From a virus, in the IMG/VR virus record IMGVR_UViG_3300008110_000030, positions 34,707 to 98,706 of that record: 64,000 bases of DNA; one strand, 5' to 3'. Below the pieces are notes generated by a model. It did no database searches. It had not been told where the DNA came from and saw only the letters and a list, made by a program, of their open reading frames with translations. Both the position numbers and the translations under genes were made by a program. How positions within the stretch are numbered: position 1 is the stretch's first letter; the number at the start of each line of letters is the position of its first letter. Of this stretch, positions 4,856-57,696 are shown piece by piece.

Positions 4856-6745
4856 ATGTCAAAGATCATCGGTATCGACCTCGGTACAACAAACTCATGC
4901 GTAGCCGTTATAGAAAACGGAATCCCCAAAGTTATTGAAAATAGTGAAGGTGCTAGAACTACACCCTCAATTGTTGCCTACGCCAACAATGAAATCTTAG
5001 TAGGTGCTACTGCAAAACGTCAAGCAGTAACAAATCCTAAAAATACAATCTATGCTAGTAAGCGTTTGATTGGACGTAAGTTTGAAGAACAAGCTGTACA
5101 AAAAGATATTGACCTAATGCCTTACAAAATTGTTCGAGCAGACAATGGTGATGCATGGATTGAAGCTAACAACGACAAACTTGCCCCACCACAGATTTCG
5201 GCAGAAGTACTCCGCAAGATGAAAAAAACTGCGGAAGACTATCTTGGAGAAACTGTAACACAGGCAGTTATTACAGTCCCAGCTTACTTTAACGACAGTC
5301 AACGTCAAGCAACAAAAGATGCAGGCAAAATTGCTGGCTTAGAAGTTCTACGTATTATTAATGAACCAACAGCGGCTGCACTTAGTTATGGTGTTGACAA
5401 AGCTGATAAAGCTGACAGGAAAATTGCTGTTTACGACCTTGGTGGTGGTACATTTGACGTAAGCATTATTGACATTGCTGATGTTGATGGTGACAAGCAA
5501 ATTGAAGTGTTATCAACCAACGGTGACACATTCTTAGGCGGTGAAGATTTTGACCAACGTATTATGGATTACTTGGTTGACGAATTTAAGAAAGAGCAAG
5601 GTGTTGATCTAAAGAAAGACATGTTGGCTCTACAACGTCTTAAAGAAGCAAGTGAAAAAGCTAAAATTGAATTATCAAGTTCAGCACAAACAGATGTTAA
5701 CTTGCCATACATTACAGCAGATGCAAGTGGTCCTAAACACATGGCAATTAAGTTGACTCGTGCTAAATTTGAATCAATGGTTGATGACCTAATTCAACGC
5801 AGTTTAGATCCATGCCGTCAAGCTATGAAAGATGCTAGTGTTACTGCCGCAGACATTGACGAAGTTATCTTGGTTGGTGGTCAAACACGTATGCCTAAGG
5901 TACAAGAAGAAGTTGAAAAACTTTTTGGTAAAGCTCCACGTCGTGATGTAAATCCGGACGAAGCTGTAGCAGTTGGTGCGGCAATTCAAGGTGCTGTTTT
6001 AGGTGGTGATCGTAAAGATGTTCTACTACTTGACGTTACTCCATTAAGTCTTGGTATTGAAACACTGGGCGGCGTAATGACCAAGATCATCCAGAAGAAT
6101 ACAACTATTCCTTCTAAAGGACAGCAAACATTCTCAACAGCTGAAGATAACCAGCCTGCGGTTACTATTAAAGTATTCCAAGGTGAGCGTGAACTTTGCC
6201 AGCATAATAAAATGTTGGGAGAGTTTAATCTTGAAGGCATTGCTCCAGCTCGTCGTGGTCAGCCACAGATTGAAGTTACCTTTGACATTGACGCTAACGG
6301 CATCATGAACATTAGTGCTAAGGACAAGTCAACTGGAAAAGAAAACAAGATTACTATCAAATCAGATAGCGGTCTTAGCAAAGAAGAAATTGAAAAAATG
6401 ATTCAAGAAGCTGAAGCAAATGCCGAAGCAGATAAAAAAGCACGTGAACTAATTGATTCTCGCAACAACGCAGAATCACAAGTACACTCTGTTAAGAAAG
6501 ACTTAACAGAGTATGGTAGTAAAATCACTGAAGATGACAAGTCTAAAATAGAAACTGCTATTAAAACTGTAGAAGATTCTATTAAGGGCGACGACACTGA
6601 AGTGATTACTAAATCAGTGACAGCATTGTTTGAAGCAATGACACCACTGATTCAAGCAAAGACTAGTACTGCTTCAGAAAGCAACAACAATAATCAAGAC
6701 GATGTTGTTGATGCTCAATACACTGAAACACCTAAGTCTGAATAA
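4856..6745 (+). CDS. dnaK: molecular chaperone DnaK (Hsp70)
   Basis: 629 aa; canonical Hsp70 motifs [33 protein letters not shown]; AAAGGAGAT SD. Confidence 0.95.
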
Positions 6746-6793
6746 GGCACCGTTAAGGGCCTAATTTGATTCTTACTTTAAAAGGAGATTATC

Positions 6794-7228
6794 ATGAATC
6801 AACTAAGAACTATAGATGCAGATACACTAACAAAAGCTCTAATTGGATTTGACACAATGTTTGACCAATTTGAACGTAGGTTTTCTAATTCAATGAGTAA
6901 TACATATCCTCCTCATAATGTTATCAAAATTGATGACAACAATTATGAGATTCAAGTGGCTGTAACTGGTTTTGGAAAAGATGATGTTACTGTTGAACTT
7001 GATCAGAACGTGTTAATTGTGACTGCTGGTAGAGATGTTGTTGAAGATGAAAAAACATATCTACACCGTGGACTTGCACAACGCAATTTTGTTCGCAACT
7101 TCCCACTTGCTGAGCATATTGAGGTTAAAGGTGCAGAACAAAAGAACGGCATCTTGTCTATTAGACTAGAGCGCATTGTTCCAGAAGCACTCAAGCCACG
7201 TCGAATTAACGTCACGTATTCAGAGTAA
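6794..7228 (+). CDS. ibpA: small heat-shock protein, IbpA/IbpB (Hsp20) family
   Basis: 144 aa; near-collinear with E. coli IbpA (YPPxNV, RTYLxxGxAxRNFxRxFxLAExIxVxGA, ERxxPEAxKPRRI). Confidence 0.9.
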   Translation: MNQLRTIDADTLTKALIGFDTMFDQFERRFSNSMSNTYPPHNVIKIDDNNYEIQVAVTGFGKDDVTVELDQNVLIVTAGRDVVEDEKTYLHRGLAQRNFVRNFPLAEHIEVKGAEQKNGILSIRLERIVPEALKPRRINVTYSE

Positions 7229-7233
7229 TTGGC

Positions 7234-7263
7234 AAAGGGGCCACTTGTGCCCCTTTGTTATTT
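7234..7263 (+). terminator. rho-independent terminator AAAGGGGC-CACTTGT-GCCCCTTT + GTTATTT
   Basis: 8-bp stem immediately after ibpA-like stop. Confidence 0.7.
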
Positions 7264-7300
7264 GTAGTATAATAAGTAAAAATAATATTTAGGAACTTAA

Positions 7301-7603
7301 ATGGGTGAAATTGCTACCAAACAAAAAAGTCTAGTAACTACAGATCTAATTGAACCTAGAAAGTTCAAAGTGATTTTCTTTAATGATGATAAAACTCCAA
7401 TGGATTTTGTTATAGATTTGTTGATTAATTTATTCAATCATGACCAAACTAGTAGCAGTAAACTAACAATGGAAATTCACAATGAAGGGTCAGCAGTAGT
7501 TGGGATTTACCCTTATGAAATCGCCGAGCAAAAAGGAATTGAATCCACACACATTGCTCGTCAAGCAGGCTACCCATTATTGATTAAAGTTGAATCGGAG
7601 TAA
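7301..7603 (+). CDS. clpS: ATP-dependent Clp protease adaptor ClpS
   Basis: 100 aa; FKVIFFNDDKTPMDFVIDLL matches ClpS core [20 protein letters not shown]; C-terminal HPLL-like YPLLIKVE. Confidence 0.85.
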   Translation: MGEIATKQKSLVTTDLIEPRKFKVIFFNDDKTPMDFVIDLLINLFNHDQTSSSKLTMEIHNEGSAVVGIYPYEIAEQKGIESTHIARQAGYPLLIKVESE

Positions 7604-7605
7604 CG

Positions 7606-8151
7606 ATGAGTTTACGAGAAATTACTAAAGATTTACATCACGAAGCAGAAATAACAAAATTTGCCAAGTTATTGCTAAGTGGAAAAATTGAAAAATCTGA
7701 TTATAAGAATTATCTATATAATCTAATGGCAGTATACGATCCAATCGAGTGGTACTGCAAACGTCAAGGTTTCCTTGACACAATGCCTACACTGCCAAGA
7801 CTACATGCTATCCATGCAGACTTTGTAGAATTAGATGATGGCACATATTGTTATCTAACGCCAGCGGCTTTAGAATATCAAGCATACTTACATAAACTAG
7901 GCAATGATCCAGAACGTAAACATTTGGTTAAGGCGCATTTATATTGCCGCCATATGGGCGACCTATTCGGTGGTCAAATCATTAAGAAACAAGTAGCACA
8001 CATTTCAAGTGGTAAATTTTACGACTTTGAAAATGCTGATGCTATGAAGATGTCTATTCGAGAAACACTCACAGATGATCTAGGAGATGAAGCTCGTGTG
8101 GCATTTGAATTTGCTATTAAGATGATGCGTGACTTATATGCAGGAGAGTAA
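7606..8151 (+). CDS. heme oxygenase (HO-1/HemO family)
   Basis: 181 aa; N-terminal LxExTKDLHHEAE...F (proximal His region) and LYxxYxxxE pattern of heme oxygenases; GGAG SD. Confidence 0.8.
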   Translation: MSLREITKDLHHEAEITKFAKLLLSGKIEKSDYKNYLYNLMAVYDPIEWYCKRQGFLDTMPTLPRLHAIHADFVELDDGTYCYLTPAALEYQAYLHKLGNDPERKHLVKAHLYCRHMGDLFGGQIIKKQVAHISSGKFYDFENADAMKMSIRETLTDDLGDEARVAFEFAIKMMRDLYAGE

Positions 8152-8827
8152 AGTATGGGACACACTAATTGAGATCCAAGCTCTACTTGAGGAGTCGTTT
8201 GAAAAAACAGGAGTCGAAGTATTCGAACCTGGAATGGATCGTTTTAATCAACCTGGTTGGGTTAATCGTGTATGGTCTAGTGATAAGTATCGCCGGGCCC
8301 ACGTTGATGTCGTTGATGCTAGGCTGACCAAAGGTCTTTGGATGATGCACTGTTGCATCTTCCCTCATACACACAATCCAGCACCAATTTACGGCTTTGA
8401 TGTTATTGCTGGTAAGAACAAAATTACTGGTTGTTTCCACGACTATAGTCCTGCTGGCGACAAAAATCATCCTATGATAGAATGGTTTGGTCAAGAAGTT
8501 AGCAAGTTAGAGTGGCGCAGAGAACGAGCACTTCCTGATTGGGCTCAGCGTATTTTTACCAAGCACATGGTGGCGGCAGGCAATGTTCAAGATGAAACTG
8601 AGTTACAACAAATTACAGATCTTGCTAAAACTACAGTAGAACACTATCTCAGTACTGTTGCAGAAACTAATAATACAGTGCCTGATACTACATTTGAGCA
8701 AGACTACTACGCACAAAATCAAAAACAAAACCCACATACTCCTAGAGTTATGGTTAGTTTAGGGCTTTCAGAGGACGATGTCAAGCATTTCATACAAGAA
8801 TGTCTATTTCCCGAAATTGGTAAATAA
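8129..8827 (+). CDS. ferredoxin-dependent bilin reductase (PcyA/PebS/PcyX family)
   Basis: 232 aa directly after heme oxygenase; LWMMHCCIFPHTHNPAPIYGFDVIAG...DYSP parallels PcyA LDILHCVMFPEPxYGLPLFGCDIVAG...DLSP; start ambiguous (8129 or 8138). Confidence 0.7.
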   Translation: MTYMQESKVWDTLIEIQALLEESFEKTGVEVFEPGMDRFNQPGWVNRVWSSDKYRRAHVDVVDARLTKGLWMMHCCIFPHTHNPAPIYGFDVIAGKNKITGCFHDYSPAGDKNHPMIEWFGQEVSKLEWRRERALPDWAQRIFTKHMVAAGNVQDETELQQITDLAKTTVEHYLSTVAETNNTVPDTTFEQDYYAQNQKQNPHTPRVMVSLGLSEDDVKHFIQECLFPEIGK

Positions 8828-8833
8828 TACATT

Positions 8834-10609
8834 ATGCGTTTAGATGAATTTCAATTAGCAGGGCAAATGCCCTCCAATATACAAAGAGCTGTTCCTGTAA
8901 CAGCTCAACCTTCTCAACCAGCAGTTGGTTCAGCTGGCGGTAACTCTTTAGAAGATAGCTTGGTAAAATTCGTTGATAAGGCTGACGATTTTCCAGATGA
9001 CTCACCTGTTCATGCTTATGTAAACAGCGTACTTAAAACAATTTTATCTTACATTCCAGATATTACGATACGTGAGAATTCAGCAACAAATCAATCATCT
9101 TTAGATGACACTAATCGTTCGTTATTGGAAGACCTCTTTCCTTATCTATCACAACTTAGTGAAGATTCTAGAAATACCCTTAAGGACTCGATTGACGGTG
9201 CAATACTTACATTAGAGCAAAAACAAAAACTTAGCGGTGAACTTTATAAGATTAAGGGTGCTAAAAAAGCCTTTACTAAACAGAATGTAACAATTCAATT
9301 AGACACCAAAGGCAACATTGCAAAGATGGATGCTGATATTGAAGCAACTGCTAGACAATTTGCCAAAGACTTTAAACTACCATTAAAATGGGCACGTAAC
9401 TTAATTGGCATGTTTGAGGTCAATATCACTAGAGAACAAAGAAAAGAATTCTTAATAGCCTGTAGAGCTGGTACTGCGCTTGATGTTGGTAAAATGATCA
9501 ATGACGGCGAAGGTCGTGTTGAAGACTATGTTTTGTTAGAACAGCCAGAACTTAAGGAAGTTTATAACAGTGTTAAAGACACGCTCCTAGACATCAGTTT
9601 AAGTACAGGTCAACGCGGAGCAACTGGTCCATTTGAAGCCATGATGGCCATCATGGGCGGATGTAAAAAACCTGGTATAAACGAGGGTGGTGATTTAAAG
9701 TATAAAGATTTAAAACTTGAAGTTAAAGCAACCTCAATTAGTGCTGTAACTGAATCTGCTACAGCAGGTAAAGCTAATTCTGCTTGGTTAGATTCTACAG
9801 CAGGTAAAGAAATATCAGGATCAACACTGAGAAGTGTGGCAAATGATTGGTTAGATAATTATGCTACAGAAGCAAGAACAAACAAAGCATTCCAAGATTC
9901 TTGGAAGAAAGCTGATTTCAGACCAGCAGGTCTTGAAAGTTTAAAACAGTGTTTAGTTGATCTTAGAAGTGTAGAAGGAGTTCCTGTTGCTCCAGCTAAG
10001 AAATTAATCAAATATATGATGGGAACTATGTTTCCAAGTATAGTGAAATTACAAAATGAAGGTTATGATTTTGACGCATCTTGTATGAGAATACTAACTG
10101 CAATTGGTAAGTTAGATACAAGCTCTATTGCTAAAGAACAAGGAGTTATGGCTTTATTAGAATATATAACTGGAAAAGGAAATGACGGTTTTGTATTCTT
10201 TAATCCATCAACTCAGAAATTCAAAATTGTTATGGGAGTAAAAGGTGTACTAGAAGAACTCAAATCAAAAAACGGTTCCAACCTACATTTTGATAGTACC
10301 ATGACCATGGGTAAGTCTGCAAAAGCCAGTCCAGGAATATATTATGGTGCAAAACCAAACTCGCCCGAAGGTATAGAATATCTAAAGAAATTTAATTCAA
10401 GTCCAGAACGTGTAGCTCAATTAAAACAAATAGAAGCAGATAAAGCAGCCGCAAGAGAAAATAAATCATTAGCCATGATTCAAGCCGCCAAAGAAGGCGA
10501 GTCAGAATTTGAATTTGATGGTAAAATGTATGCTGTTTCTAAAGCCGCTTTAAAGAAGTATTTTGAGCCTGACATGCCAATCTCCAGAACCAAAAAGAAA
10601 ACCCGTTAA
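8834..10609 (+). CDS. hypothetical protein (591 aa)
   Basis: long ORF, co-directional, no recognisable motifs. Confidence 0.55.
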   Translation: MRLDEFQLAGQMPSNIQRAVPVTAQPSQPAVGSAGGNSLEDSLVKFVDKADDFPDDSPVHAYVNSVLKTILSYIPDITIRENSATNQSSLDDTNRSLLEDLFPYLSQLSEDSRNTLKDSIDGAILTLEQKQKLSGELYKIKGAKKAFTKQNVTIQLDTKGNIAKMDADIEATARQFAKDFKLPLKWARNLIGMFEVNITREQRKEFLIACRAGTALDVGKMINDGEGRVEDYVLLEQPELKEVYNSVKDTLLDISLSTGQRGATGPFEAMMAIMGGCKKPGINEGGDLKYKDLKLEVKATSISAVTESATAGKANSAWLDSTAGKEISGSTLRSVANDWLDNYATEARTNKAFQDSWKKADFRPAGLESLKQCLVDLRSVEGVPVAPAKKLIKYMMGTMFPSIVKLQNEGYDFDASCMRILTAIGKLDTSSIAKEQGVMALLEYITGKGNDGFVFFNPSTQKFKIVMGVKGVLEELKSKNGSNLHFDSTMTMGKSAKASPGIYYGAKPNSPEGIEYLKKFNSSPERVAQLKQIEADKAAARENKSLAMIQAAKEGESEFEFDGKMYAVSKAALKKYFEPDMPISRTKKKTR

Positions 10610-10684
10610 GTATTAATTTACTAAGCATTTAATTTATCGCTCTACTACCGTTAAATAATAATGACGGTAATCGGAGAGCGAGCA

Positions 10685-11230
10685 ATGAAAAAACAAATGT
10701 ATGCCTTTATGCTATTGGCATGGGTAAGTGCTATTCATTCGGCACCATTGAATGACTTTCAATTTAAAAGTCCTGCATTCAATGGAGTTGGTTATAGTTC
10801 ACATGTACTAACCATAGAAAATCAAGAACGTACACGTCAAAACGAACGTGCAGATAAACTACAGGCTGAAATTGACAAAGCAATTTCAGATAAGAAAAAC
10901 ACGAATCTTGCTAAGTTTGTTAGTAACTTAGAATCGCGTATCTACGCACAGATTAGCCAAAACGTAGCAACTGCTATGTTTGCCAATAATAATTGTACAG
11001 CAAGTAGCAACACAAACTGTTCAGGGAATATTGATTTCCAAGGAAACTATATTAGTTGGAGCAAGGTATTAAGCTCTGATGATTCAAACTGTTCTACAGC
11101 ATATGGTTCTTGCATCATGTTGAGAATAGCAGATCCTACAGCAACGAACCCAACAACAGCACCTTGTAATTCTGATGGTGTATCTTGTATCTATGTGCCA
11201 CTAAGTTCATTCCAAATGCCAGGGAATTAA
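10685..11230 (+). CDS. csgF: curli assembly protein CsgF-like
   Basis: signal peptide; mature N-terminus FQFKSPAFNGV matches CsgF FQFRNPNFGGN; immediately precedes csgG; GGAGAG SD (ORF-track start 10661 is upstream alternative). Confidence 0.6.
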   Translation: MKKQMYAFMLLAWVSAIHSAPLNDFQFKSPAFNGVGYSSHVLTIENQERTRQNERADKLQAEIDKAISDKKNTNLAKFVSNLESRIYAQISQNVATAMFANNNCTASSNTNCSGNIDFQGNYISWSKVLSSDDSNCSTAYGSCIMLRIADPTATNPTTAPCNSDGVSCIYVPLSSFQMPGN

Positions 11231-11233
11231 CCC

Positions 11234-12484
11234 ATGAAAAAGACTATTATATCTTTGGCAATCGTAAGTATGCTTTCTGGCTGTGCAATTTTGCAGTCAA
11301 CAGGAGAGTTTGATAAAACTCCAGAACTGACTACTCAGATGAAAGGTGTTAAGAAAGAGTTTGACACCATTCCAAGTCCATCAGCTGGTAGACCATTAAG
11401 TGTTGCTGTATACAGTTTTACTGATAAAACGGGTCAACGTAGACCACAGGCTAATATTGCCAGTTTAAGTTCAGCAGTTACACAAGGCGCAGAATCTTTT
11501 CTAATTCAAGCACTACAAAATGTAGGTCAAGGACAATGGTTTGATGTTGTAGAAAGAGTAGGCATTGATAACCTGACTAAAGAACGATTAATTATTCGCC
11601 AGATGCGTGAAGCATACGAAGGTAAAGATGCTAAACCATTACTACCAATGCAGTTTGCAGGCATTATTATTGAAGGCGGCATTGTAGGCTATGACTCTAG
11701 CACAACTAGTGGTGGTGTTGGACAACGTATTTTTGGTATTGGAAAACAAACACAATGGTCCACTGATAGGGTTACCGTAAGTTTACGAGCAGTTAGCGTA
11801 AACACTGGCAAAGTATTAGCCACAGTGACTACTCAAAAGACTATAATGAGTTCAGCAGACAGTGTGTCTGCATTAAAATTCTTTGATGCTGGAACACAGG
11901 CGTTTGAAGCTGAGGCAGGTTTAACCATAAACGAGCCAGGTACATACGCTGTAAAGGCAACAATTGAAATGGCAGTAGTTGAATTAATTAAAGAAGGACA
12001 ACGCAAGGGAGTATGGGATTACAAGACAGTGGTTAAAGAATCACCACCTGTATCAATCGCACCACCCCCACAGGCAGCTCCAGTGATTAGCAGTGAAGTA
12101 AGACAGAAAGAAGAAATTAAAGTAGAGGAGAAGAAAGATGTCGTGGTTCAATCACAAACCCAATCCGAAACGAAAACAGAAGCCGCACCCAGTGCCTCCA
12201 CAGAAGTAAAAAAAGAGACACTTAAGGACGGTGCAGAACTAAAAGTAACAGCAATGCAAACTGGGGTAAAACCAACAATAGATCTTTTTGGTGCTAGGTA
12301 TTTAAAAGAAGATTCATTTGTATATAAAGAAGCAAACGAAAAAAGTCAGCGAACTTGGCTATTAAAGAAAGGCACTGAATTATACATTATTACTCCAGGA
12401 CCAGAAGGTTGGCACCAAGTAAGAGACGCAGAGAAGCGTAAAGGTTTTGTCAAGAATTCAGTACTCGGAACTGACAAACCATAA
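11234..12484 (+). CDS. csgG: curli production assembly/transport lipoprotein CsgG with C-terminal Pro/Lys/Glu-rich linker and SH3-like extension
   Basis: lipobox LSGCA; collinear with E. coli CsgG (VAVYSFTDKTGQ, IIEGGIVGYDSSTTSGGVGQRIFGIGKQTQ, LRAVSVNTGKVL); about 140 extra C-terminal aa. Confidence 0.9.
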   Translation: MKKTIISLAIVSMLSGCAILQSTGEFDKTPELTTQMKGVKKEFDTIPSPSAGRPLSVAVYSFTDKTGQRRPQANIASLSSAVTQGAESFLIQALQNVGQGQWFDVVERVGIDNLTKERLIIRQMREAYEGKDAKPLLPMQFAGIIIEGGIVGYDSSTTSGGVGQRIFGIGKQTQWSTDRVTVSLRAVSVNTGKVLATVTTQKTIMSSADSVSALKFFDAGTQAFEAEAGLTINEPGTYAVKATIEMAVVELIKEGQRKGVWDYKTVVKESPPVSIAPPPQAAPVISSEVRQKEEIKVEEKKDVVVQSQTQSETKTEAAPSASTEVKKETLKDGAELKVTAMQTGVKPTIDLFGARYLKEDSFVYKEANEKSQRTWLLKKGTELYIITPGPEGWHQVRDAEKRKGFVKNSVLGTDKP

Positions 12485-12582
12485 AGATAGCGAGTACGGA
12501 GGAACGTAGAGGTAAACTTAATTTAATGGCCGTAGGCCAAGGAGCGTGGTTGGAGAATATATAATCCAATCGTGTATAAAAG

Positions 12583-13557
12583 ATGGACAAAAGAAACAAA
12601 GGCGTTGGTAAGTTGTCGAGAAAATTACTTACAATTCTGGTGTTGTCTGGAATGGCAACATTGGGTCATGCGGCTGATAACAGCATCTACATTGATCAAG
12701 CAGGTGACAACAGCACAATTACTATGACACAAGATGGTGCTGGTAATAAAGTAAAAGGCATTTTGTCAAGCGGTGTTGCTGGAGGTACTACAGATCCTGC
12801 TAAACTTACTGGCAATGCTCAAACAGTTAACATTGAGCAAACTGGTGCAACCAACGTCTTGGCATTGGGAGTTAATTCAACGCAAGGTGGTTTAGTACAA
12901 GGATATGCTAACATAGGTGTGAATTTAAACTATCAAGTAAGTGGTGGTGGAAACACTGGTTATATTAACATTAATAACAATGGTCAAGGAACTGCAATTG
13001 GTAATGTGGTCAGTATTATACAAAGTGGTGGCGGTGGAACAGCAACACTTAACATGACTGGAACTAGTAATCAATTGACTGTTGGTCAGAGTGGTGGTGC
13101 TAACAATACATTTATAGGCACAATCAATGCTGACGAAACTGTAGCAACTGTAAGTAACACACTAGGTGGTGGTAATACTACAACATTAGACATGACTGGA
13201 AATAAAGGTCAAGTTAGTGTTACAACAACAGGCACTACAAATACAACAAGCGTGACACAAAGCGCATTTGGATCAACTGGTGCGCAAGTACTAGTTAACA
13301 TTGATGGTTCAGGCAATAATACAACTGTTACACAAAGTGGTATGTATGATCACTATGCTAGTCTAAGTGTAGTTGGCAGTGGTAATAACTTTACAATAGC
13401 ACAGTCTGGTGGTTCTGCAACTGGACATTCTGCTACATTGTCTGTAACTGGAAGTACAAACACTGTTGGTATCACACAGCAAGGATCAGTTGCCAATCTA
13501 ACCAACATGGCAGTAAATGGTAGTAATAATACATACACTATACTACAGAAAAATTAA
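12583..13557 (+). CDS. secreted curlin-repeat protein (CsgA/CsgB-like amyloid subunit)
   Basis: signal peptide; many imperfect repeats of type N-x-T-V-x-Q-x-G-x-x-N (for example NQLTVGQSGGANN, NTTVTQSGMYDH, NFTIAQSGGSATGHSATLSVTGSTNTVGITQQGSVAN). Confidence 0.7.
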   Translation: MDKRNKGVGKLSRKLLTILVLSGMATLGHAADNSIYIDQAGDNSTITMTQDGAGNKVKGILSSGVAGGTTDPAKLTGNAQTVNIEQTGATNVLALGVNSTQGGLVQGYANIGVNLNYQVSGGGNTGYININNNGQGTAIGNVVSIIQSGGGGTATLNMTGTSNQLTVGQSGGANNTFIGTINADETVATVSNTLGGGNTTTLDMTGNKGQVSVTTTGTTNTTSVTQSAFGSTGAQVLVNIDGSGNNTTVTQSGMYDHYASLSVVGSGNNFTIAQSGGSATGHSATLSVTGSTNTVGITQQGSVANLTNMAVNGSNNTYTILQKN

Positions 13558-13566
13558 GAGGTTGGA

Positions 13567-14673
13567 ATGAACGTATGGCTAGCAATATTACTTGTTTCGT
13601 TACTGCACACATCAAATGCTCAAGCGGCAATTGGTAAAGTAACGGAACAGGTAAACATACCTCCTACAATTCAACGAGATAAATCAACCCTAACTGGCAG
13701 CAAAGGTACAGGTGTTGAGATGAATGACTCAATTAAAACTTCTCAAGGCAAAGTGGGCATTACCTTTGAAGATGATACCCGTGTACAAGTAAACGAAAAC
13801 AGTAAACTGGTTATTGATGACTTTGTTTATGATCCAAAAACCAAAGCAGGTAAACTAGGTGCTAAGATTGCACTAGGTACTGTACGCTATGCTAGTGGAC
13901 AGATTGCTAAGAATAGTCCACAGAGTGTAAACCTTAATACACCTAGTGCTACTGTAGCAGTTCGTGGTACGGACTTTACAGCCACAGTAGACGAACTTGG
14001 TGAGAGTACAATTATTCTACTACCTAGTTGTCCTAACGATAGACCTACACGTACAGTAAAAGACATTGAAGCAAGTTGTAAAACTGGTGTAATTGAAGTC
14101 AGCAATGACGTGGGCACTGTAATATTAAATCAACCGTTCCAAGTAACTAAAGTACAGAGCAGAACACAACCTCCTACTCCACCTAAAACACTGGAGTTAT
14201 CTGAAATGGCTATCAGTAACTTGATAATTTTGAGTCCTCCAAAAGAAGTTAAGCAAGCTCAAGAAGAACAGCGTAAAGTGTTTAATCCTTTAGACATAGA
14301 TTTTCTAAAAGAAAAAGGATTAGAGAACTGGCTTGATATGCAAGCTGGAGTTATCTACGAAGACAAACTAAAGAAAAACTTTTTGGATAACGATTTCCTA
14401 GCCAGCTTATTTGACATTATTGGTAATCAATTGGATCAAAAATTCTTAGACCCAGTAGATCCTGTACTACCTGACTACAAGAGAGCTACTGGTATCGTTG
14501 CCTACAAAGATGATACGAGTATTGAATTGTGTAGAGATAGTGGTGCTGACATACAGTGTGTTAAAACTCCTTTAACACAGAACAGTACAATCTTCCAAAC
14601 ACAAGGTAGTTTAGAGTTTAAGAATCGTGTTAATCAAGGCGGTAATACTATCATTACCTTAATACAAAGATGA
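13567..14673 (+). CDS. secreted FecR-domain protein
   Basis: signal peptide; TPSATVAVRGTDFTATV matches FecR-domain core (x-V-x-V-RGT-x-F); sits between the two curlin-like genes. Confidence 0.5.
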   Translation: MNVWLAILLVSLLHTSNAQAAIGKVTEQVNIPPTIQRDKSTLTGSKGTGVEMNDSIKTSQGKVGITFEDDTRVQVNENSKLVIDDFVYDPKTKAGKLGAKIALGTVRYASGQIAKNSPQSVNLNTPSATVAVRGTDFTATVDELGESTIILLPSCPNDRPTRTVKDIEASCKTGVIEVSNDVGTVILNQPFQVTKVQSRTQPPTPPKTLELSEMAISNLIILSPPKEVKQAQEEQRKVFNPLDIDFLKEKGLENWLDMQAGVIYEDKLKKNFLDNDFLASLFDIIGNQLDQKFLDPVDPVLPDYKRATGIVAYKDDTSIELCRDSGADIQCVKTPLTQNSTIFQTQGSLEFKNRVNQGGNTIITLIQR

Positions 14674-15938
14674 AACGTTTTATTTTAGGATTTGTAATCT
14701 TGTGGTGTGTATGTTTGAGTGCAATTGCTCAAGCCACGTCTTTTACTGATTTAAAATTTGGTCAATATCAGATTGCAGATTCTCAATGGGACGTTGGGGC
14801 ATGTTTGTATACAAATACTTGTAATATTTACAGTACTCAACCAGGAACAATGTATCAAATACCTTGGTGGAACGGACAGTGGAACTGGCAATCTGGTCAG
14901 TATGTTAAATTTTTATTAAGTGGAATCTCTGGATATCCTTACACCGCAAATGTTTACAATAGTGACGGCAGTCTAGCAGGTAGTATAGGTAGTGGTAAAA
15001 TTATTAACATGGGTGTTGATGCAAATGGTTATGCATTATTTTTCTTTGTAGGGACAGATGATAATACTGGACAACTTTTTAGTACAAATTACGGATTTAC
15101 AGGTACGGGCGGATATTCTTGGACTGGTACATTAAATCCAACAATTTCACAAGTTGACTCATTTTCTGTAAGTTACGGATCAACGACACCATTAAGTCCT
15201 GGTCAAACATTTACTGCTACCAGTTCAACTCCATCTGGACCAACAGTCTCAGGCGGAACTATAACACAGTCTAACGCTCCAAATAATCAAATTATAGGCA
15301 GTGGAAGTGGTATTGGAATCAGCAACAATCAACAAAGTCGTGTAAACACTTGGAATAACGGTAGCAATCAAAATGCCAATAACTATTTGTATATTGATCA
15401 AGTAAGTGGTTCCTACAATGACGTAACTATTACACAAACAACTAGTACAGGTAAGAACAAAATAGAAGCGACAATAGGCGGAACTGGAAATAATGTTATT
15501 AACGCAACACAATCTGGTACTAACTATCTTAAGTTAGATGTCACTGGTAATAACAACAATGTAACAAGTCAACAGTCTAATAATAGTTTGACTAGCAATT
15601 ATAAAGAAACTACAGTTAATGGTAATAGTAATATTATTAGTACTAACCAAAAAGACAATTCTAATCACATAATGTTTACCACAGTAACTGGTAACAGTAA
15701 TAGTGTGACAGCAGTACAAGAAGGCACAGGTGGTCACTATTTAGAAAATAAACTTACTGGCAACAATAATAGTGTACTTGCTAATCAGAGCGGAAATACA
15801 AAAAATAACGCCACTATAGATTTAACTAATAATGGCGGAGCCGCCAGTGTTGATTTACAACAATCTGGCGGGAAATCTTTTAGTATTATTCAAAGTTGTA
15901 CCAATCCTGCAGGATGTAGTACTGTGGTAAGACAATAA
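14670..15938 (+). CDS. curlin-repeat protein with about 230-aa non-repeat N-terminal domain
   Basis: signal peptide; C-terminal half made of curlin-like repeats (YIDQVSGSYNDVTITQT, VINATQSGTNYLKLDVTGNNNNVTSQQS, VTAVQEGTGGHY, VLANQSGNTKNNATIDL, VDLQQSGGKS); ATGA overlap with previous gene. Confidence 0.65.
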   Translation: MKRFILGFVILWCVCLSAIAQATSFTDLKFGQYQIADSQWDVGACLYTNTCNIYSTQPGTMYQIPWWNGQWNWQSGQYVKFLLSGISGYPYTANVYNSDGSLAGSIGSGKIINMGVDANGYALFFFVGTDDNTGQLFSTNYGFTGTGGYSWTGTLNPTISQVDSFSVSYGSTTPLSPGQTFTATSSTPSGPTVSGGTITQSNAPNNQIIGSGSGIGISNNQQSRVNTWNNGSNQNANNYLYIDQVSGSYNDVTITQTTSTGKNKIEATIGGTGNNVINATQSGTNYLKLDVTGNNNNVTSQQSNNSLTSNYKETTVNGNSNIISTNQKDNSNHIMFTTVTGNSNSVTAVQEGTGGHYLENKLTGNNNSVLANQSGNTKNNATIDLTNNGGAASVDLQQSGGKSFSIIQSCTNPAGCSTVVRQ

Positions 15939-16628
15939 TTATACCTTAAATAACCATTTCTTTGTTATGTGTAATCTTGCCTTGTTGTACTGAACAGCAG
16001 TAATAACTAGAGCAACTGCCCAAGGTACAATAGTAGCGGCCCAAGGAACTAATCCTGCCCACCACGTAGCCATTAATGGTTCTTTCATCAACATTAACAT
16101 AGCCACGGCAAACAAGACAAACGATCCTACAAATACTGTGTCAGGATATTTTTCTAGTATCTTACTAACTAGGCCAGCACCAAACAAAATAATTGGCACA
16201 CTGATTAACAAGCCAGCAATTACTAAAACAAAACTTCCATTAGCGGCTGCGGCAATACCTAGTGCGTTGTCTATGCCCATAACAGCATCGGCAACTACGA
16301 TAGTACCAATAGCACCCCAAAAGGTGTCCTTGGCTTCTATGTTATGCTCGTCATGTGTAAATGCTAACTTCCAACCAATCCATAACAATGCAAGAGCACC
16401 TATTGCTCTAAGTCCAGGAATTAGTAATAGGTAAGTTAATGCGGCTACAGATATGAAGCGTATTGCGATGGCACCAAAGGTACCCCAAAAGATTGCTTTC
16501 TTGCGCAAGTGATCTGGTAGTTTATTAGCTGCCATTCCAATAACAAGAGCGTTATCGCCAGCTAATACAATGTCTATCAAAATGATAGCTAAAAATGCCC
16601 AAAGGGCCTGAAGCGTAAAGAGTTCCAT
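15939..16628 (-). CDS. TerC/YjbE-family integral membrane protein
   Basis: 229 aa on minus strand; duplicated LAGDNALVIG / GIDNALGIA motifs typical of TerC family; multiple TM helices. Confidence 0.8.
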   Translation of the reverse strand: MELFTLQALWAFLAIILIDIVLAGDNALVIGMAANKLPDHLRKKAIFWGTFGAIAIRFISVAALTYLLLIPGLRAIGALALLWIGWKLAFTHDEHNIEAKDTFWGAIGTIVVADAVMGIDNALGIAAAANGSFVLVIAGLLISVPIILFGAGLVSKILEKYPDTVFVGSFVLFAVAMLMLMKEPLMATWWAGLVPWAATIVPWAVALVITAVQYNKARLHITKKWLFKV

Positions 16629-16715
16629 AATTTACCTTAAAGTTATGGTCTCACCTCTTTGTCCATGCACCGGATACTGTTGTATCGTGTTGACGGCACA
16701 TAAAACCAACACCAG

Positions 16716-17300
16716 TTGGTTAGTTACTCCCCAAAGATATTTAGTAAATACAATATGCGAGCAAAAGAATTCATTATAGAAGCAGAAGCTAGCGATGCTG
16801 AGTTAACGCAACGTTACGGCAAGTTTGAACCCGAAGATAAACCAATGTTACCAACCACAAGAGTTGGTGGTGCGCCTTCCCCAACTTTATGGACAGCCTA
16901 CGAAGTAATTCGAAATATTTTAGGCAAAGATAAAGTTACAGACGACGATGATGAATTAGCTCCTGGAATGTACTATGTGTATCAAAGCTTAGGCTCTCCT
17001 ATGTTTAAAGACACAGGTGATGGAGTAGGTAGTATCAATCTTCCCAACTTAGATAGTACTAGTGCTCGAGATGTTGCCATGGCTGCTCACGAAGCATACC
17101 ATGCTTATGTACACAATAAAAGTCTTGGCGGAGTTGCTTATGCCAATGAAAAGATTATTAACAAACTAGCAGAAAAGTGGTTGAGAAATCACTTGTCAGG
17201 ACCAGCATTACACACTGCACTAGAAAAAATAGTGGGCAGTAGAATCAGTTATGGTCCAAACCATATGCCTAACAGTTCAACAATAGATAAAAGAAAATGA
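16716..17300 (+). CDS. hypothetical protein
   Basis: ORF-track start is TTG; first ATG at 16755; no recognisable motifs. Confidence 0.45.
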   Translation: MVSYSPKIFSKYNMRAKEFIIEAEASDAELTQRYGKFEPEDKPMLPTTRVGGAPSPTLWTAYEVIRNILGKDKVTDDDDELAPGMYYVYQSLGSPMFKDTGDGVGSINLPNLDSTSARDVAMAAHEAYHAYVHNKSLGGVAYANEKIINKLAEKWLRNHLSGPALHTALEKIVGSRISYGPNHMPNSSTIDKRK

Positions 17301-17593
17301 TTAAGAAAATCTTATTAATTCTATTGGTCTGCTTACCCAGTCTAGTTAACGCCCAATTCCAATACGATTATCCATTGTTGTGCGACCGCACTGCAAAGAT
17401 CATACAAAGTCTCGGGGACGACTGGAAAGAAACGCTGACTTGGAGTGGAAAACACATCAGTGACAACAGTGTCTACAGTCTGTGGACCAATGAAAAAAAT
17501 GGATCATGGACCCTATTAAAGATGACTTCAGAAGTTTCGTGTATACTTGGAACGGGTAGCGAATCAAAAGTAAACTTAGGAATGCCTATATAA
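17297..17593 (+). CDS. small secreted protein
   Basis: signal peptide MIKKILLILLVCLPSLVNAQ; ATGA overlap upstream and TAATG overlap downstream. Confidence 0.45.
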   Translation: MIKKILLILLVCLPSLVNAQFQYDYPLLCDRTAKIIQSLGDDWKETLTWSGKHISDNSVYSLWTNEKNGSWTLLKMTSEVSCILGTGSESKVNLGMPI

Positions 17594-19635
17594 TGATTAA
17601 GAAAATTTTATTAAGCCCTTGGACTGCTCTATTAACACTGGCGTTAGTAGTGGGCATACGTGCGGCAGACCCCACATTCGTTGAAAGCGTAAGACTACGC
17701 TACTTTGATACCTTAATTACTGCTAAGGAACCAACATTCAACAATATTGTAACAGTAAATATTGATGAAGCTAGCTTGGACAAGTATGGACAATGGCCAT
17801 TGCCAAGGACTGAATATGCCAAAATTATACGAGATCTATATCAGAGGGGAGCAGGACTTGTTGTACTTAATGTGCTCATGCCAGAGTCAGACCGTACAGG
17901 TGGCGACAGTGCGTTGGGTCAAACTCTAAAAGAATTTCCAGTAGTGCTAGGGTCAGTTCCTAGCAACAAAACAAAAAATACTCCACGTGCCCCAGGGTCA
18001 GCAGTATTAGGCCCAGAGCATTTGGATCAAATTATTCGGTATCCAGGTCTAATTGCCAATGTGCCATTGCTAGAAAATTCGGCGGCAGGAGTTGGCATAG
18101 TTTCAACACTACCTGAAGTAGACGGTGTTAATCGTAGATTACCTCTTATCGTCACTGTTGATGGTAAATTATATCCAAGCATAGCTATGGAAACGCTCCG
18201 CATTGCGGCTGGCGATAGCACCTTTCAAGTAAAACTATTTGAGGGCGGTGTTGAAAAAATGCGTATACCTAAATTTGGTCCTGTTACTACAGACAATTTG
18301 GGTCGTATATGGATTGACTGGAGTCAGCAAAATAGAAACTTTAGTTTAACTACATTACCAAAAGATTTAGAAGGTGCAATTGTCATCGTAGGCCCAACAG
18401 CCGCAGGTATTAGTAATCCAGTACCAACAAGTAAAGGGGCAGTATTTCCACACGAAGTACAAGCCGCAGTTATTGGTACAATGGTAAACGGAGTTGTAAT
18501 TGAACGTCCTGATTATGCAGATGGCGCAGAGATTATAGCATTATTAGCATTTGGTTTATTATTAATTTTCTTATCGAGGTGGACTTATGTTGGCATTTGT
18601 GCTACTGTGGTTATTGTTGGTGCCGTCGTTCCTGGTACTATGTACGCTTTCACTAATTGGCTCATCCTATCAGACGCGACTGCAATCACGTTTGGGCTTA
18701 TTATCGTTGCTCTTCATACTTATGGCGTTAAGTTTGTAAGCGAGTTCTTACAGAAGCAGGCAATTAAGAAACAATTTGAGGGATATGCAAGTCCTACAGT
18801 AGTTAAACTACTACAAGAAAATCCAGACATCATCAAGAACGGAACTAAACGTGAAGTATCTATAGTGTTTTCAGACCTACGTGGATTTACTCCATTAGGT
18901 GAAAGTTTTGGTGATGACGTTAAAGGTCTAACTGAAGTTATGAACGGCTACATGGATGCTATTACACAACCTGTACTAGATGCAGATGGTATGATTATCA
19001 AGTACATTGGTGATGCAAGTATGCATATTCATAATGCACCTATTGATGATCCTGACCATGCTAAGACAGCAGTAGCTACTGGACTTAAAATGTTGAAAGC
19101 TGTTAAAAAGTTCAGCATTGAATTAGAGGCTAAAGGACGTCCAGGAGTCAAGATGGGTGCTGGTATCAATACTGGTTTAGGTTATATTGGCGAGATGGGA
19201 TCAACTCGTCGTCATTCATATGATGTACTAGGTGATGCAGTGTCAACAGCCGCACGTATTGAAAGCAAGTGTAAAGAATATGGATGCGTATTATTAGTTG
19301 GCGGTGCAACTGTGGAACAATGTGGTGATGATTTCTTCTTCTTAAAAGTAGATGACCTGGCTGTTAAGGGTAAGAGTGTGGGAGTTGCTATCTATACAGT
19401 ATTAGATGATGTTACTGCTGAGTATCATGTGAGTAAAAAGATACATGATGCTATGCATAATGCATATAGATCACAAAAATTTAACATGGCTATCAGTATG
19501 TGCAAACAACTTAGAGATCAGTTTGACAGTAGATTGACTGGTTACTATGACATGTGGATAGAACGTTGCGAGTTCCAATTAACACAAACATTGCCTGAGG
19601 ATTGGAACGGCGTGTTTATAGCAACTTCTAAATAA
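17593..19635 (+). CDS. CHASE2 sensor domain-containing class III adenylate/guanylate cyclase
   Basis: 680 aa; N-terminal periplasmic domain, TM cluster, C-terminal cyclase homology domain (VSIVFSDLRGFTPLGE, IKYIGDASM, GINTGLGYIGEMGS). Confidence 0.85.
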   Translation: MIKKILLSPWTALLTLALVVGIRAADPTFVESVRLRYFDTLITAKEPTFNNIVTVNIDEASLDKYGQWPLPRTEYAKIIRDLYQRGAGLVVLNVLMPESDRTGGDSALGQTLKEFPVVLGSVPSNKTKNTPRAPGSAVLGPEHLDQIIRYPGLIANVPLLENSAAGVGIVSTLPEVDGVNRRLPLIVTVDGKLYPSIAMETLRIAAGDSTFQVKLFEGGVEKMRIPKFGPVTTDNLGRIWIDWSQQNRNFSLTTLPKDLEGAIVIVGPTAAGISNPVPTSKGAVFPHEVQAAVIGTMVNGVVIERPDYADGAEIIALLAFGLLLIFLSRWTYVGICATVVIVGAVVPGTMYAFTNWLILSDATAITFGLIIVALHTYGVKFVSEFLQKQAIKKQFEGYASPTVVKLLQENPDIIKNGTKREVSIVFSDLRGFTPLGESFGDDVKGLTEVMNGYMDAITQPVLDADGMIIKYIGDASMHIHNAPIDDPDHAKTAVATGLKMLKAVKKFSIELEAKGRPGVKMGAGINTGLGYIGEMGSTRRHSYDVLGDAVSTAARIESKCKEYGCVLLVGGATVEQCGDDFFFLKVDDLAVKGKSVGVAIYTVLDDVTAEYHVSKKIHDAMHNAYRSQKFNMAISMCKQLRDQFDSRLTGYYDMWIERCEFQLTQTLPEDWNGVFIATSK

Positions 19636-20037
19636 TTAACCTTCGCCTGCAGCCGCAGTTTTTACATCATCAGGATCAATGTCATCTCTGCGTTTGATAG
19701 TTTTAGGTTGTTCTTTTTTACCGTCATGTGCAACTGCTTCTTGAAATTTTTCAGAAGCTTCACGCTCAACTTTAACACCTTCCATAACACGATCACTTTC
19801 AATCATCTTACCACGTAGGTGTAACACAGTATTAACTTTTTGGTTTAAACGAATCAAATCGTTGTCCAACATACGGATACGATCTATTAGAGCGATAAGA
19901 ACTGTATTGGCTTCTGAGATGACTGGTTTAACTTCTTTGGTTGACCATTCCCATACATATTTGATAATATAACCCATTCCCACTGCCATGACAATGGGAA
20001 ATCCATATTTGTTTACTAACTCTACTATTTCAGTCAT
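19636..20037 (-). CDS. small single-pass membrane protein (paralog of 20510-20818; BhlA/UviB-like topology)
   Basis: N-terminal TM (GFPIVMAVGMGYII) then coiled-coil-like region; GGAG SD; paralogy with 20510-20818. Confidence 0.5.
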   Translation of the reverse strand: MTEIVELVNKYGFPIVMAVGMGYIIKYVWEWSTKEVKPVISEANTVLIALIDRIRMLDNDLIRLNQKVNTVLHLRGKMIESDRVMEGVKVEREASEKFQEAVAHDGKKEQPKTIKRRDDIDPDDVKTAAAGEG

Positions 20038-20309
20038 TTATTACTCCTTATTCCAAAATCCCCAAGGGTTATATATTTTCTTTACTTGTTTTTTTGGTTC
20101 ATAATGATACCAAAAAGCTACTGCTACTAACATTAGTATCTCTAAAAGATAAAATACTAGAAATGATTCAAAGAGCAAGCCCAATTAATGTTCCTAAAAA
20201 TACACCAAACAATCCCGCTCGCCACATGTCACTATCATACCATATAGCCTGAGGTTGATCCATCCAGTCTTTGATATGTTGCGGTTGTGCATCATACCAC
20301 GCTTCCCAT

Positions 20310-20513
20310 TTATTTTTCTTGAACATTTGGTTTATATCCCCTAACAAAAGCTTCTATTGGTTCTATTTTCTGTAATATTTGTTTACCGTTAACATTGGTA
20401 AACTTAAATAGATCCCCTGCTCGCCAACCCAATTTATCAGAATTAAATTCTTCATCTAATATAATACCGTTAGGTGAACAATCCCAATTATAATCAAAGT
20501 GTAGCATTATCAA
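20310..20513 (-). CDS. hypothetical small protein
   Basis: 67 aa ORF within minus-strand island, 4-nt overlap with upstream gene. Confidence 0.35.
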   Translation of the reverse strand: MIMLHFDYNWDCSPNGIILDEEFNSDKLGWRAGDLFKFTNVNGKQILQKIEPIEAFVRGYKPNVQEK

Positions 20514-20818
20514 TCCCTTCTTGCATCATTCTTTCCGTCTGCTCGAGCAATACGATCAGCATCCGGACGTAGACCTAGCGCATTAGATACGATAGTATCA
20601 ATACGAATAACGTCGTGATTCATTGTTTTAACACGATTATCTAATGCTACGATAATACCTGCCATACCTTTGATACTGCCCAAAACTCCCTGTAACAGAA
20701 GTTTGATAGTCAAATATACAAAGTACCCGCCCGCAAACGCAACAGCTATAGGGAACCCTAAATCACCAATTAATTTAAAAATTTCGTTCATAATCGCTCC
20801 ATTTTTTACTATATCCAT
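20510..20818 (-). CDS. small single-pass membrane protein (paralog of 19636-20037)
   Basis: shares GFPIxVAxxxGY TM segment and ALDNRVKTMNHDVIRI / ALIDRIRMLDNDLIRL segment with the 133-aa gene. Confidence 0.5.
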   Translation of the reverse strand: MDIVKNGAIMNEIFKLIGDLGFPIAVAFAGGYFVYLTIKLLLQGVLGSIKGMAGIIVALDNRVKTMNHDVIRIDTIVSNALGLRPDADRIARADGKNDARRD

Positions 20819-21112: not shown

Positions 21113-21187
21113 CTGGCGATAGTTCAACGGATAGAACAGTAGCCTTCTAAGCTATTAATCCAGGTTCGATTCCTGGTCGCCGGACCA
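21113..21187 (+). tRNA. tRNA-Arg (anticodon TCT), CCA encoded
   Basis: cloverleaf folded by hand: acceptor CTGGCGA/TCGCCGG (one G-U), D arm GTTC-AACGGATA-GAAC, anticodon arm GTAGC-CTTCTAA-GCTAT, T arm CCAGG-TTCGATT-CCTGG, discriminator A + CCA; 75 nt. Confidence 0.85.
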
Positions 21188-22049: not shown

Positions 22050-22679
22050 ATGGGATTTGTTACTGACGGAGATTTATCTAAAATATTTGGACGTATTGAC
22101 AAAAAACTGTCTGTTGTTCATGACAAGGACAAGTCTTTAGTTGAAATACTTGATCTTGATATCGCTAGCGGGCCTTGGCTTGCTGGCGGTGCTGTACTTA
22201 CTTGGCTTAGTGGTAACCCAGTTGGCGACAGTGACTTTGATATATTTTTCAAAGATTTGCGACAGTTTGATGAAGTGTTTGGCAGACTCATGCGCAACCA
22301 TGCTAGTATCATCTACACCAGTGAAAACGCATTGACCTTGCATCTTGTTATTGATGACGATCTCAAACGAATCCAATTGATTCGAAAAAATTATTTTGAT
22401 TCTGCAAAAGATGTAATTGATCATTTTGACTTTACTATTTGTCAACTGGTAACTGATGGCTACCAAATAGTTGGTGCTGACCACACATTTGAACATATAA
22501 AAGAAAAACGAATTGTATCTGTTGGACCTGCCAAACGATCTATTGTAAAAAGAATTGTCAAATATGTTAGTTATGGATACACTGTTGATTGTGATTTAAT
22601 GCAATCAATTCTCGACAATCCTGAAGAGTATGATTGGTCATTTAATAACATAGATGAAAATTATGAAAACGCATTCTAA
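22050..22679 (+). CDS. putative Pol-beta-superfamily nucleotidyltransferase
   Basis: GGAVLTWLSGNPVGDSDFDIFF fits hG[GS]-x9-13-DhD motif; downstream VIDDD may give third acidic residue. Confidence 0.5.
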   Translation: MGFVTDGDLSKIFGRIDKKLSVVHDKDKSLVEILDLDIASGPWLAGGAVLTWLSGNPVGDSDFDIFFKDLRQFDEVFGRLMRNHASIIYTSENALTLHLVIDDDLKRIQLIRKNYFDSAKDVIDHFDFTICQLVTDGYQIVGADHTFEHIKEKRIVSVGPAKRSIVKRIVKYVSYGYTVDCDLMQSILDNPEEYDWSFNNIDENYENAF

Positions 22680-24092: not shown

Positions 24093-24177
24093 GCCTGCAT
24101 GGTGAAATCGGTAAACACAGCAGACTTAAAATCTGCCGGAGAAATCCTTCCCAGTTCGATTCTGGGTGCAGGCACCA
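24093..24177 (+). tRNA. tRNA-Leu (anticodon TAA), type II with long variable arm, CCA encoded
   Basis: acceptor GCCTGCA/TGCAGGC, D GTG-AAATCGGTAAA-CAC, anticodon GCAGA-CTTAAAA-TCTGC, variable CGGAGAAATCCTT, T CCCAG-TTCGATT-CTGGG; 85 nt. Confidence 0.85.
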
Positions 24178-24187
24178 AAATACATAG

Positions 24188-24216
24188 TTGACAAAAATAA
24201 CAAACACATATATAAT
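24188..24216 (+). promoter_or_regulatory. sigma70-type promoter TTGACA-N17-TATAAT driving the downstream tRNA
   Basis: perfect consensus hexamers 24 nt upstream of tRNA 5' end. Confidence 0.65.
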
Positions 24217-24239
24217 ATAGAACACTTTACAAGGACATT

Positions 24240-30686: not shown

Positions 30687-30687
30687 G

Positions 30688-45623: not shown

Positions 45624-45704
45624 GCCATTATTTACATTAAGTTTATAAAACTATAAGGTAAATAAAGTGGACAGTTGGTATATCACCCAAATTTGGAGTT
45701 AATA

Positions 45705-54236: not shown

Positions 54237-54273
54237 GATATCCTAAAATAAATAAGATAAACAGGAACGAAAA

Positions 54274-57693: not shown

Positions 57694-57696
57694 ACT

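Follow-up and report, generated by a model that had tools for sequence, protein, structure and literature searches.

Curli-type (type VIII) secretion modules have already been described in marine phages, where they are very common. The closest described examples are those of Pelagibacter phage HTVC008M and Methylophilales phage Melnitz (Kyanoviridae), whose GenBank records annotate in a row CsgF, CsgG, a curlin-associated repeat protein, a FecR-domain protein, a second curlin-associated repeat protein and an adenylate/guanylate cyclase. The module was reported to be widespread in pelagimyophages, and a role in "sibling capture" was proposed for it (Zaragoza-Solas 2020, PMC7029224). The CsgG-CsgF complex of Melnitz was later modelled and a lysis-timing pore was proposed (Buchholz 2022, PMC9004378). 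CsgA/B-type, FecR and cyclase genes were also found, with CsgE missing, in podophage and myophage pelagiphages; the genes were present at all 65 GOV2.0 stations, they amounted to approximately 0.1% of the assembled viral proteins, and expression of module components was detected in Pacific metatranscriptomes (Wittmers 2022, PMC9599517). Therefore, the system type itself belongs to the literature, while its function in phages is still a proposal. Here, a curli-type gene cluster was analyzed in a 64,000-nucleotide stretch of viral DNA, positions 34,707 to 98,706 of the IMG/VR record IMGVR_UViG_3300008110_000030 (hereafter the window, meaning this whole stretch). A first-pass annotation of the window, made without database searches, had considered such a system in a phage to be undescribed, a view that is refuted by the two GenBank annotations and the three papers.

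Positions 10685-15938 of the window hold five co-directional open reading frames (ORFs), each of them with an N-terminal signal sequence in its translation. The first-pass annotation had interpreted these ORFs as a CsgF-like protein, CsgG, two curlin-type proteins and a FecR-domain protein, and this assignment was borne out: significant Pfam matches to CsgF, CsgG, Curlin_rpt and FecR were obtained in the first four of the five proteins, and the second curlin-type protein was identified by its structure model and by homology. The span given at that time was nevertheless too short, since the cyclase and two small membrane proteins had been left out. The conserved module consists of eight genes: csgF, csgG, the first curlin gene, the FecR-domain gene, the second curlin gene, a CHASE2 adenylate cyclase gene and the genes of the two small membrane proteins (Table 1). 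On sequence comparison, it is an intact copy of the known viral type VIII (curli) module, situated on a different and larger uncultured phage backbone.

The relatives of the cluster were found by protein search only, and no match of its DNA was obtained among 50,697 phage records. When the CsgG protein was searched against this phage collection, HTVC008M and four records of phage Melnitz were retrieved. All of the module proteins of the window have reciprocal counterparts in HTVC008M and Melnitz, the gene order is alike, the same pair of small membrane proteins is present and CsgE is not found there either. The same cluster was also detected in 50 IMG/VR contigs with a CsgG 45-88% identical to that of the window, so that related phages, as the first-pass annotation had suggested checking, do carry it. 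By the published description, the podophages of the HTVC023P type likewise encode CsgF, CsgG, CsgA/B, FecR and an adenylate cyclase, in many cases with a second CsgA/B but without CsgE, and a short "histidine kinase" gene, or two of them, stands before csgF (PMC9599517).

The carrier, by contrast, is different. The identities to HTVC008M and Melnitz are only 25-52%, and of the window ORFs of at least 80 amino acids (aa) only the module genes and one HSP20 gene, the sole non-module gene in common, have homologues in HTVC008M. The pair of small membrane protein genes lies downstream of the module on the opposite strand in the window and upstream of csgF in HTVC008M and Melnitz, the CsgG of the window has an additional linker and SH3 tail, and a TerC gene and two small ORFs are inserted in the module. 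Contigs encoding near-identical or closely related proteins reach 214-373 kb, the related ones 245-373 kb compared with 141-147 kb for HTVC008M and Melnitz, and the window phage has rIIA and rIIB in its backbone. The HTVC023P-type carriers are podoviruses, as opposed to the large rIIA/rIIB-bearing phage analyzed here. The window backbone thus corresponds neither to a Kyanoviridae pelagimyophage nor to an HTVC023P-type podophage, and no paper describing its clade was found. The module therefore reaches beyond the small marine phages of SAR11 and OM43 to a whole clade of large uncultured phages, and its presence on an unrelated backbone argues for horizontal spread as an eight-gene unit and for strong selection. 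What is new here is the carrier lineage, the SH3 extension of CsgG, the swappable head of the second curlin subunit, the curlin-like tail of the FecR-domain protein and a better-defined boundary of the module. The swappable heads and the two tails, together with a bacterial pairing of FecR with CHASE2 and the virus-only small membrane proteins, offer handles on the mechanism.

The phage setting proposed by the first-pass annotation was also upheld, with rIIA, rIIB and three tRNAs on one contig with the cluster. The rIIA product is at most 29-44% identical to those of known phages. A head-maturation-protease-like gene and a weak tail-fiber match were detected in the window as well, and the capsid, terminase and polymerase genes lie outside its 64 kb. 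The label "T4-like" is tentative, being drawn from rIIA and rIIB only; these two genes are clear, and the T4 late-promoter motif TATAAATA was not enriched (1 match versus 6.3 expected). Between 10400 and 20200, sigma-70 promoters were below chance (21 found versus 29.7 expected) and terminators were at about chance (8 versus 6.2), and the limits of operons could not be placed from these scans.

Compared with the csgBAC-csgDEFG genes of E. coli, the module has in common a collinear CsgG, the FQF..P.F.G motif of CsgF, curlin repeats and a CsgA-like beta-solenoid model. It differs in having no CsgE, CsgC or CsgD, in the residues of the constriction loop, in curlin subunits that are 2-3 times longer, one of them with a non-curlin head, and in the FecR-domain protein and the CHASE2 cyclase embedded in the cluster. 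The csgF ORF opens at 10661, and a second ATG at 10685 yields a normal signal peptide, directly followed by the mature N-terminus APLNDFQFKSPAFNG. The motif FQFKSPAFNG in this protein is almost invariant across approximately 50 related loci. In E. coli, the CsgF N-terminus sits inside the CsgG barrel; APLNDFQFKSPAFNG is its counterpart and may bind CsgG likewise.

The collinearity of CsgG with the E. coli protein, noticed at first reading, was confirmed over residues 7-268 with the solved E. coli CsgG structures (PDB search, E 5.5e-44), and the lipobox LSGC is kept in the relatives. Behind the channel part (residues 1-268) come a linker rich in Pro, Glu and Lys and an SH3-type domain at residues ~360-411; the latter gave an SH3_4 match of 24.4 bits (cutoff 24.1) in a scan of the C-terminal tail by itself. 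This extension of 150 residues is missing from HTVC008M and Melnitz, and 38 of the 58 related CsgG proteins are longer than 360 aa. CsgG has its C-terminus on the periplasmic side, and peptidoglycan is a frequent ligand of SH3 domains in bacteria; the tail may therefore tether the channel to the cell wall peptidoglycan.

The first curlin protein, whose C-terminus reads ...NTYTILQKN, has its homologues in the corresponding, likewise first curlin proteins of HTVC008M and Melnitz. The predicted structure of the second curlin-type subunit matches CsgA and contains a CsgA-like beta-solenoid, which ends in a conserved Cys-x5-Cys loop. Its N-terminal head was modelled as a confident beta-rich domain, with a predicted local distance difference test (pLDDT) score above 90. 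Conservation of this protein is limited to the C-terminal 230 residues, and the head is exchanged even in close relatives; the 575-aa protein of contig L003, for example, aligns over residues 191-422 only. In many homologues, the head on the same curlin tail is instead an F5/8 type C (discoidin) domain, and the second curlin subunit of HTVC008M has a PA14 head. Since exchangeable binding-type heads sit on a curlin anchor, an adhesive extracellular product is favored.

The FecR-domain protein belongs to a family with at least 7980 metagenome homologues in which, here, the FecR domain (residues 55-147) precedes a helical central part and a tail at the C-terminus (...NRVNQGGNTIITLIQR). A conserved stretch of this tail, ...TQNSTIYQTQGSLEFKNRVNQGGNTIITLIQ[KR], aligns in register with the curlin repeats, with hhalign scores of 21.7 and 25.4, while none of 40 column shuffles exceeded 13.5. 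This resemblance to curlin repeats is suggestive only; if real, it would suggest that the FecR protein is physically tied to the fiber or to the channel.

The cyclase is found downstream of the curli genes wherever the related sequence extends far enough, and it is for this reason assigned to the module. Its best PDB matches are adenylate cyclases. In class III cyclases, a Lys/Asp pair specifies ATP, Asp residues bind the metal and an Asn is catalytic. The cyclase of the window keeps the adenine-specifying Lys/Asp pair and both metal-binding Asp residues; that of HTVC008M keeps the Asn (VNLAAR), but a Ser replaces the adenine-specifying Asp.

Additionally, FecR homologues were examined in 71 bacterial loci (L066-L136). 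A CHASE2 protein was encoded within 8 kb in 28 of these loci, CsgG, CsgF and curlin in none, and no link to iron transport genes was observed in the FecR-CHASE2 loci. In a Pelagibacteraceae single-cell genome (AG-349-P05; L117, 4620-8552), a CHASE2-SpoIIE membrane protein (PP2C phosphatase), a 438-aa protein and a 191-aa FecR-domain protein are encoded in a row. Judging from these genes, the SAR11 group, to which hosts of the marine curli phages belong, possesses a FecR-CHASE2 sensor itself, with another output domain. The FecR protein of the phage exceeds the SAR11 one by approximately 170 residues; the latter, the one bacterial FecR protein examined in this respect, is too short to hold the helical part and the curlin-like tail. 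Similar pairs have been described in other bacteria: in Burkholderia, a FecR-domain protein stands beside a CHASE2 histidine kinase in the BiofilmReg operon (PMC5192318), and in S. meliloti, the CHASE2 protein CyaD1, which is an adenylate cyclase like that of the window, and the FecR-domain protein SMc02177 take part in one cAMP/Clr regulatory circuit (PMC5498481). In the paired bacterial loci, in SAR11 and in Burkholderia, as in the window, the gene of a secreted FecR-domain protein lies close to that of a membrane protein whose CHASE2 domain is periplasmic, and both domains were detected by Pfam in the window; the bacterial pairs differ from it in having no curli genes and in their output, a histidine kinase, a PP2C phosphatase or a cyclase. 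The gene of SMc02177 presumably adjoins cyaD1. From this gene context, FecR and CHASE2 would form a sensor pair in its own right in bacteria, without curli. Since FecR pairs with CHASE2 sensors of varied output and no iron transport link is seen, "iron regulator" is an inference from the family name, and the FecR protein is better interpreted as a periplasmic co-sensor that would interact with CHASE2.

The two small membrane proteins of the module are more conserved than the curli proteins. Paralogue A is 49% identical to the product of an HTVC008M gene (7181-7462) located directly upstream of csgF, and in 31 of 58 loci, nearly all of those with enough flanking sequence, it accompanies the module. 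Paralogue B is probably 93 aa long, starting from an internal Met. In the window clade, both genes are found on the opposite strand, after the cyclase gene. Their homologues are confined, among the 50,697 phage records, to six curli-carrying records, and none were found in the 71 bacterial FecR loci. The family comprises 3169 metagenome homologues, typically of 93 aa, for which neither a Pfam domain nor an informative name was obtained from any source. That these proteins might be ordinary T4-type core genes marking an insertion site was considered and rejected, because they occur only in the six curli-carrying phage records. They are probably the short "HK" genes before CsgF of Wittmers 2022, and no HisKA or HATPase kinase domain was detectable in them.

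Taken together, a fiber-exporting curli system coupled to a FecR-CHASE2 sensor is the best-supported reading of the module, and we regard it as reasonably probable. During infection, the five signal-peptide proteins would cross the inner membrane through the host Sec pathway. The CsgG lipoprotein would then form an outer-membrane channel capped by the N-terminus of CsgF and, in the window clade, possibly anchored by its periplasmic SH3 tail. Both curlin proteins would be exported through it and would polymerize on the infected cell as a curli-like beta-solenoid fiber, which could act as an adhesin by means of the exchangeable binding head of the second subunit. Such a fiber would alter what the infected cell sticks to, or what reaches the cell surface. 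The FecR-domain protein and the CHASE2 cyclase would constitute a periplasm-to-cytoplasm sensor setting the level of cyclic AMP (cAMP) from an envelope cue. Fiber assembly, adhesion and signaling are what we infer from the identified genes. Sequence alone does not decide what the phage gains; aggregation and capture of new hosts, receptor shielding against superinfection, and lysis timing have been proposed in print (PMC7029224, PMC9004378, PMC9599517). The roles in the host envelope or biofilm matrix suggested by the first-pass annotation had thus already been put forward in these three papers, while no evidence was found for the decoration of virions that it had also suggested.

Several observations weigh against a working, fiber-forming and signaling module. 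No Pfam match to CsgE, CsgC or CsgD was found in any ORF of 8834-20818, in agreement with the first-pass annotation, which had recognized neither CsgE nor CsgC. These three proteins are also missing from the alphaproteobacterial and the other viral modules (Wittmers 2022, PMC9599517), and therefore they do not define the wider curli family. The constriction residues of CsgG, Y/N/F in E. coli, are Q/S/L here, with one extra residue. Regarding the subunits, the NCBIfam matches of the first curlin protein (CsgB, E 5e-8; CsgA, E 4e-6) score far under the equivalog cutoffs, the second had no direct Curlin_rpt match in the Pfam scan, and no fold was identified for its head. The likeness of the FecR tail to curlin repeats is weak (hhalign probability 11-42%), and the reversed controls reached scores of 10.6 and 19.9, the latter against the second curlin protein. 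The structure model of the FecR-domain protein, built on an alignment in which every sequence was 68% or more identical to the query, was unusable (pLDDT 47.8). In the cyclase of the window clade, a Ser replaces the catalytic Asn (19200-19260, around YDVLGDAVSTAARIE). Finally, no clumping of Melnitz-infected cells was seen in cytograms or electron micrographs (Buchholz 2022, PMC9004378).

The last of these observations belongs to the proposal, made for Melnitz, that CsgG and CsgF were repurposed as a gated outer-membrane pore, a pinholin or secretin, that times lysis, with the cyclase and the two small holin-like proteins as its control circuit (Buchholz 2022, PMC9004378). Slight support for this idea comes from the two small membrane proteins: they accompany the module, weakly match a holin family (phrog_4898, E 7e-5 for paralogue A and 1e-3 for the other) and YvrJ (E 0.005), and are better conserved than the curli proteins; the divergent constriction of CsgG and the absence of CsgE would also fit with it. 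The holin match is weak, however, and covers the transmembrane segment only, and CsgG is an outer-membrane protein, while holins act at the inner membrane. Moreover, two secreted curlin-type proteins, one of them with a CsgA-matching model, have been kept with the pore in approximately 50 loci, for which a pore alone would give no reason, and the adhesin-type heads (F5/8 type C and PA14) point to an extracellular product. We therefore consider a lysis-timing pore unlikely.

An uptake channel has also been discussed, in which CsgG without its CsgE gate would stay open and admit cofactors, iron complexes or other solutes, with FecR reporting the cargo (Zaragoza-Solas 2020, PMC7029224; Wittmers 2022, PMC9599517). 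The missing CsgE and the FecR domain are both accommodated by this proposal, but it leaves the two curlin proteins, CsgF and the adhesin heads unexplained, and the bacterial loci in which FecR pairs with CHASE2 sensors of varied output contain no iron transport genes; we hold it to be quite improbable. We give equally little credence to an outside-in sensing organelle, in which the curlin-tailed FecR protein, together with the SH3-bearing CsgG, would physically connect a fiber with swappable lectin-type heads to the CHASE2 cyclase, so that contact with cells, particles or phages would raise a cAMP signal acting on lysis timing or phage gene expression, perhaps by way of the holin-like pair.

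An artefact, that is, bacterial curli genes misjoined to phage DNA or a wholly bacterial contig, as the first-pass annotation had cautioned, might be suspected from close relatives in contigs binned to bacterial metagenome-assembled genomes (MAGs; e.g., Polynucleobacter, Rhodobacteraceae and an actinobacterium) and from cellular-type genes such as HSP70 and TerC in the window, but its probability is negligible and chimeric assembly was rejected, given that the 21 kb from 3567 to 24673, with both flanks, are 99.97-99.995% identical to contigs of four separate Joint Genome Institute (JGI) metagenome samples, that synteny with the 245.5-kb IMG/VR viral contig L003 extends to both sides (80-87% nucleotide identity), that rIIA and rIIB lie on the same contig as the curli genes, that two cultured phages have the orthologous module, and that the module-bearing MAG contigs also hold the virus-only small membrane proteins. 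These contigs (L057-L065) contain the whole viral module and have been deposited in public MAGs labelled as Polynucleobacter, Rhodobacteraceae, Flavobacteriaceae, Legionellales, Luteolibacter and Pirellulales; most likely, they are phage sequences assigned to the wrong bin. The names of such MAGs with related contigs, Polynucleobacter for example, give a mere hint of a freshwater habitat, and no paper mentioning the JGI samples was found.

Table 1. Features of the curli-type module and of other regions of the window (positions are those of the 64,000-nucleotide stretch).
Feature	Positions	Strand	Evidence or description	Identity to HTVC008M / Melnitz
CsgF-like secreted protein	10685-11230	+	Pfam CsgF, 29.9 bits (cutoff 25.8)	34-40%
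CsgG outer-membrane lipoprotein	11234-12484	+	Pfam CsgG, E 2.7e-46	45-46%
First curlin-repeat fiber subunit (CsgA/CsgB-like), signal peptide	12583-13557	+	Curlin_rpt, 29.2 bits (cutoff 20.7), three stretches	25-31% (curlin proteins)
Secreted FecR-domain protein	13567-14673	+	Pfam FecR, E 3.7e-10	40%
Second curlin-type subunit	14670-15938	+	N-terminal beta-rich head (~30-180) and C-terminal curli beta-solenoid (~238-421)	25-31% (curlin proteins)
TerC-family membrane protein	15939-16628	-	Pfam TerC, E 4e-40	
Two small ORFs, 194 aa and 98 aa (signal peptide)	16716-17593	+	Between TerC and cyclase	
Membrane CHASE2 sensor fused to class III adenylate cyclase	17593-19635	+	Pfam CHASE2, E 3e-39; Guanylate_cyc, E 6e-18	35-52% (HTVC008M 35%, Melnitz 52%)
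Small single-pass membrane protein with coiled coil, 133 aa, paralogue A	19636-20037	-	phrog_18771, E 3e-29	
Small single-pass membrane protein, 102-aa ORF, paralogue B	20510-20818	-	phrog_18771, E 1e-29	
rIIA	28515-30686		PHROGs, E 4e-130	
rIIB	30679-31488		PHROGs, E 1e-80	
HSP70/DnaK (629 aa), HSP20 and ClpS adaptor	4856-7603			
Heme oxygenase (181 aa) and ferredoxin-dependent bilin reductase (~230 aa)	7606-8827		Pfam, identical JGI locus	
591-aa protein	8834-10609			
tRNA-Arg(UCU)	21113-21187			
209-aa protein	22050-22679		Precomputed Pfam match PF26128 (Gad2), identical JGI locus	
Two tRNA-Leu(UAA)	24093-24324			
241-aa protein	42004-42729		ABC transporter ATPase PHROGs, E 1e-38	
Three very long ORFs (2853, 1139 and 1413 aa)	45675-61938			

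Among the additional genes located within the module, the TerC gene, between the second curlin gene and the cyclase, was found besides the window in just three related loci (L003, L025 and L029; 84-91% identity), and it looks like an occasional passenger; a link to secretion is possible, as TerC proteins act at the membrane. The 194-aa ORF that follows it (16716-17300) contains a HEAYH motif, which corresponds to the HExxH pattern of zinc metallopeptidases. This ORF and the 98-aa one were present in only a few related loci, and no family match was obtained for either of them, or for the 591-aa protein upstream of csgF, in Pfam or PHROG. These three proteins were rejected as part of the module core because they are not conserved with it.

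Just upstream of the module, the heme oxygenase gene overlaps the bilin reductase gene; together they are a pigment-biosynthesis pair, and no sign of a cyanobacterial host was seen. These genes are preceded by a full-length HSP70/DnaK, the HSP20 and a ClpS adaptor, encoded in a row. The DnaK is up to 67% identical to DnaK proteins in phage-collection records whose best matches look cellular. Downstream of the module, the 209-aa protein would be a counter-defence gene product if PF26128 is the Gabija anti-defence family. The two tRNA-Leu(UAA) genes are in tandem, 62 bases apart, with the tRNA-Arg(UCU) gene nearby. The match of the 241-aa protein to ABC transporter ATPases represents unusual phage cargo. 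Finally, the three very long ORFs are consecutive, and the 1139-aa one gave only a weak tail-fiber PHROG match (E 2e-6).

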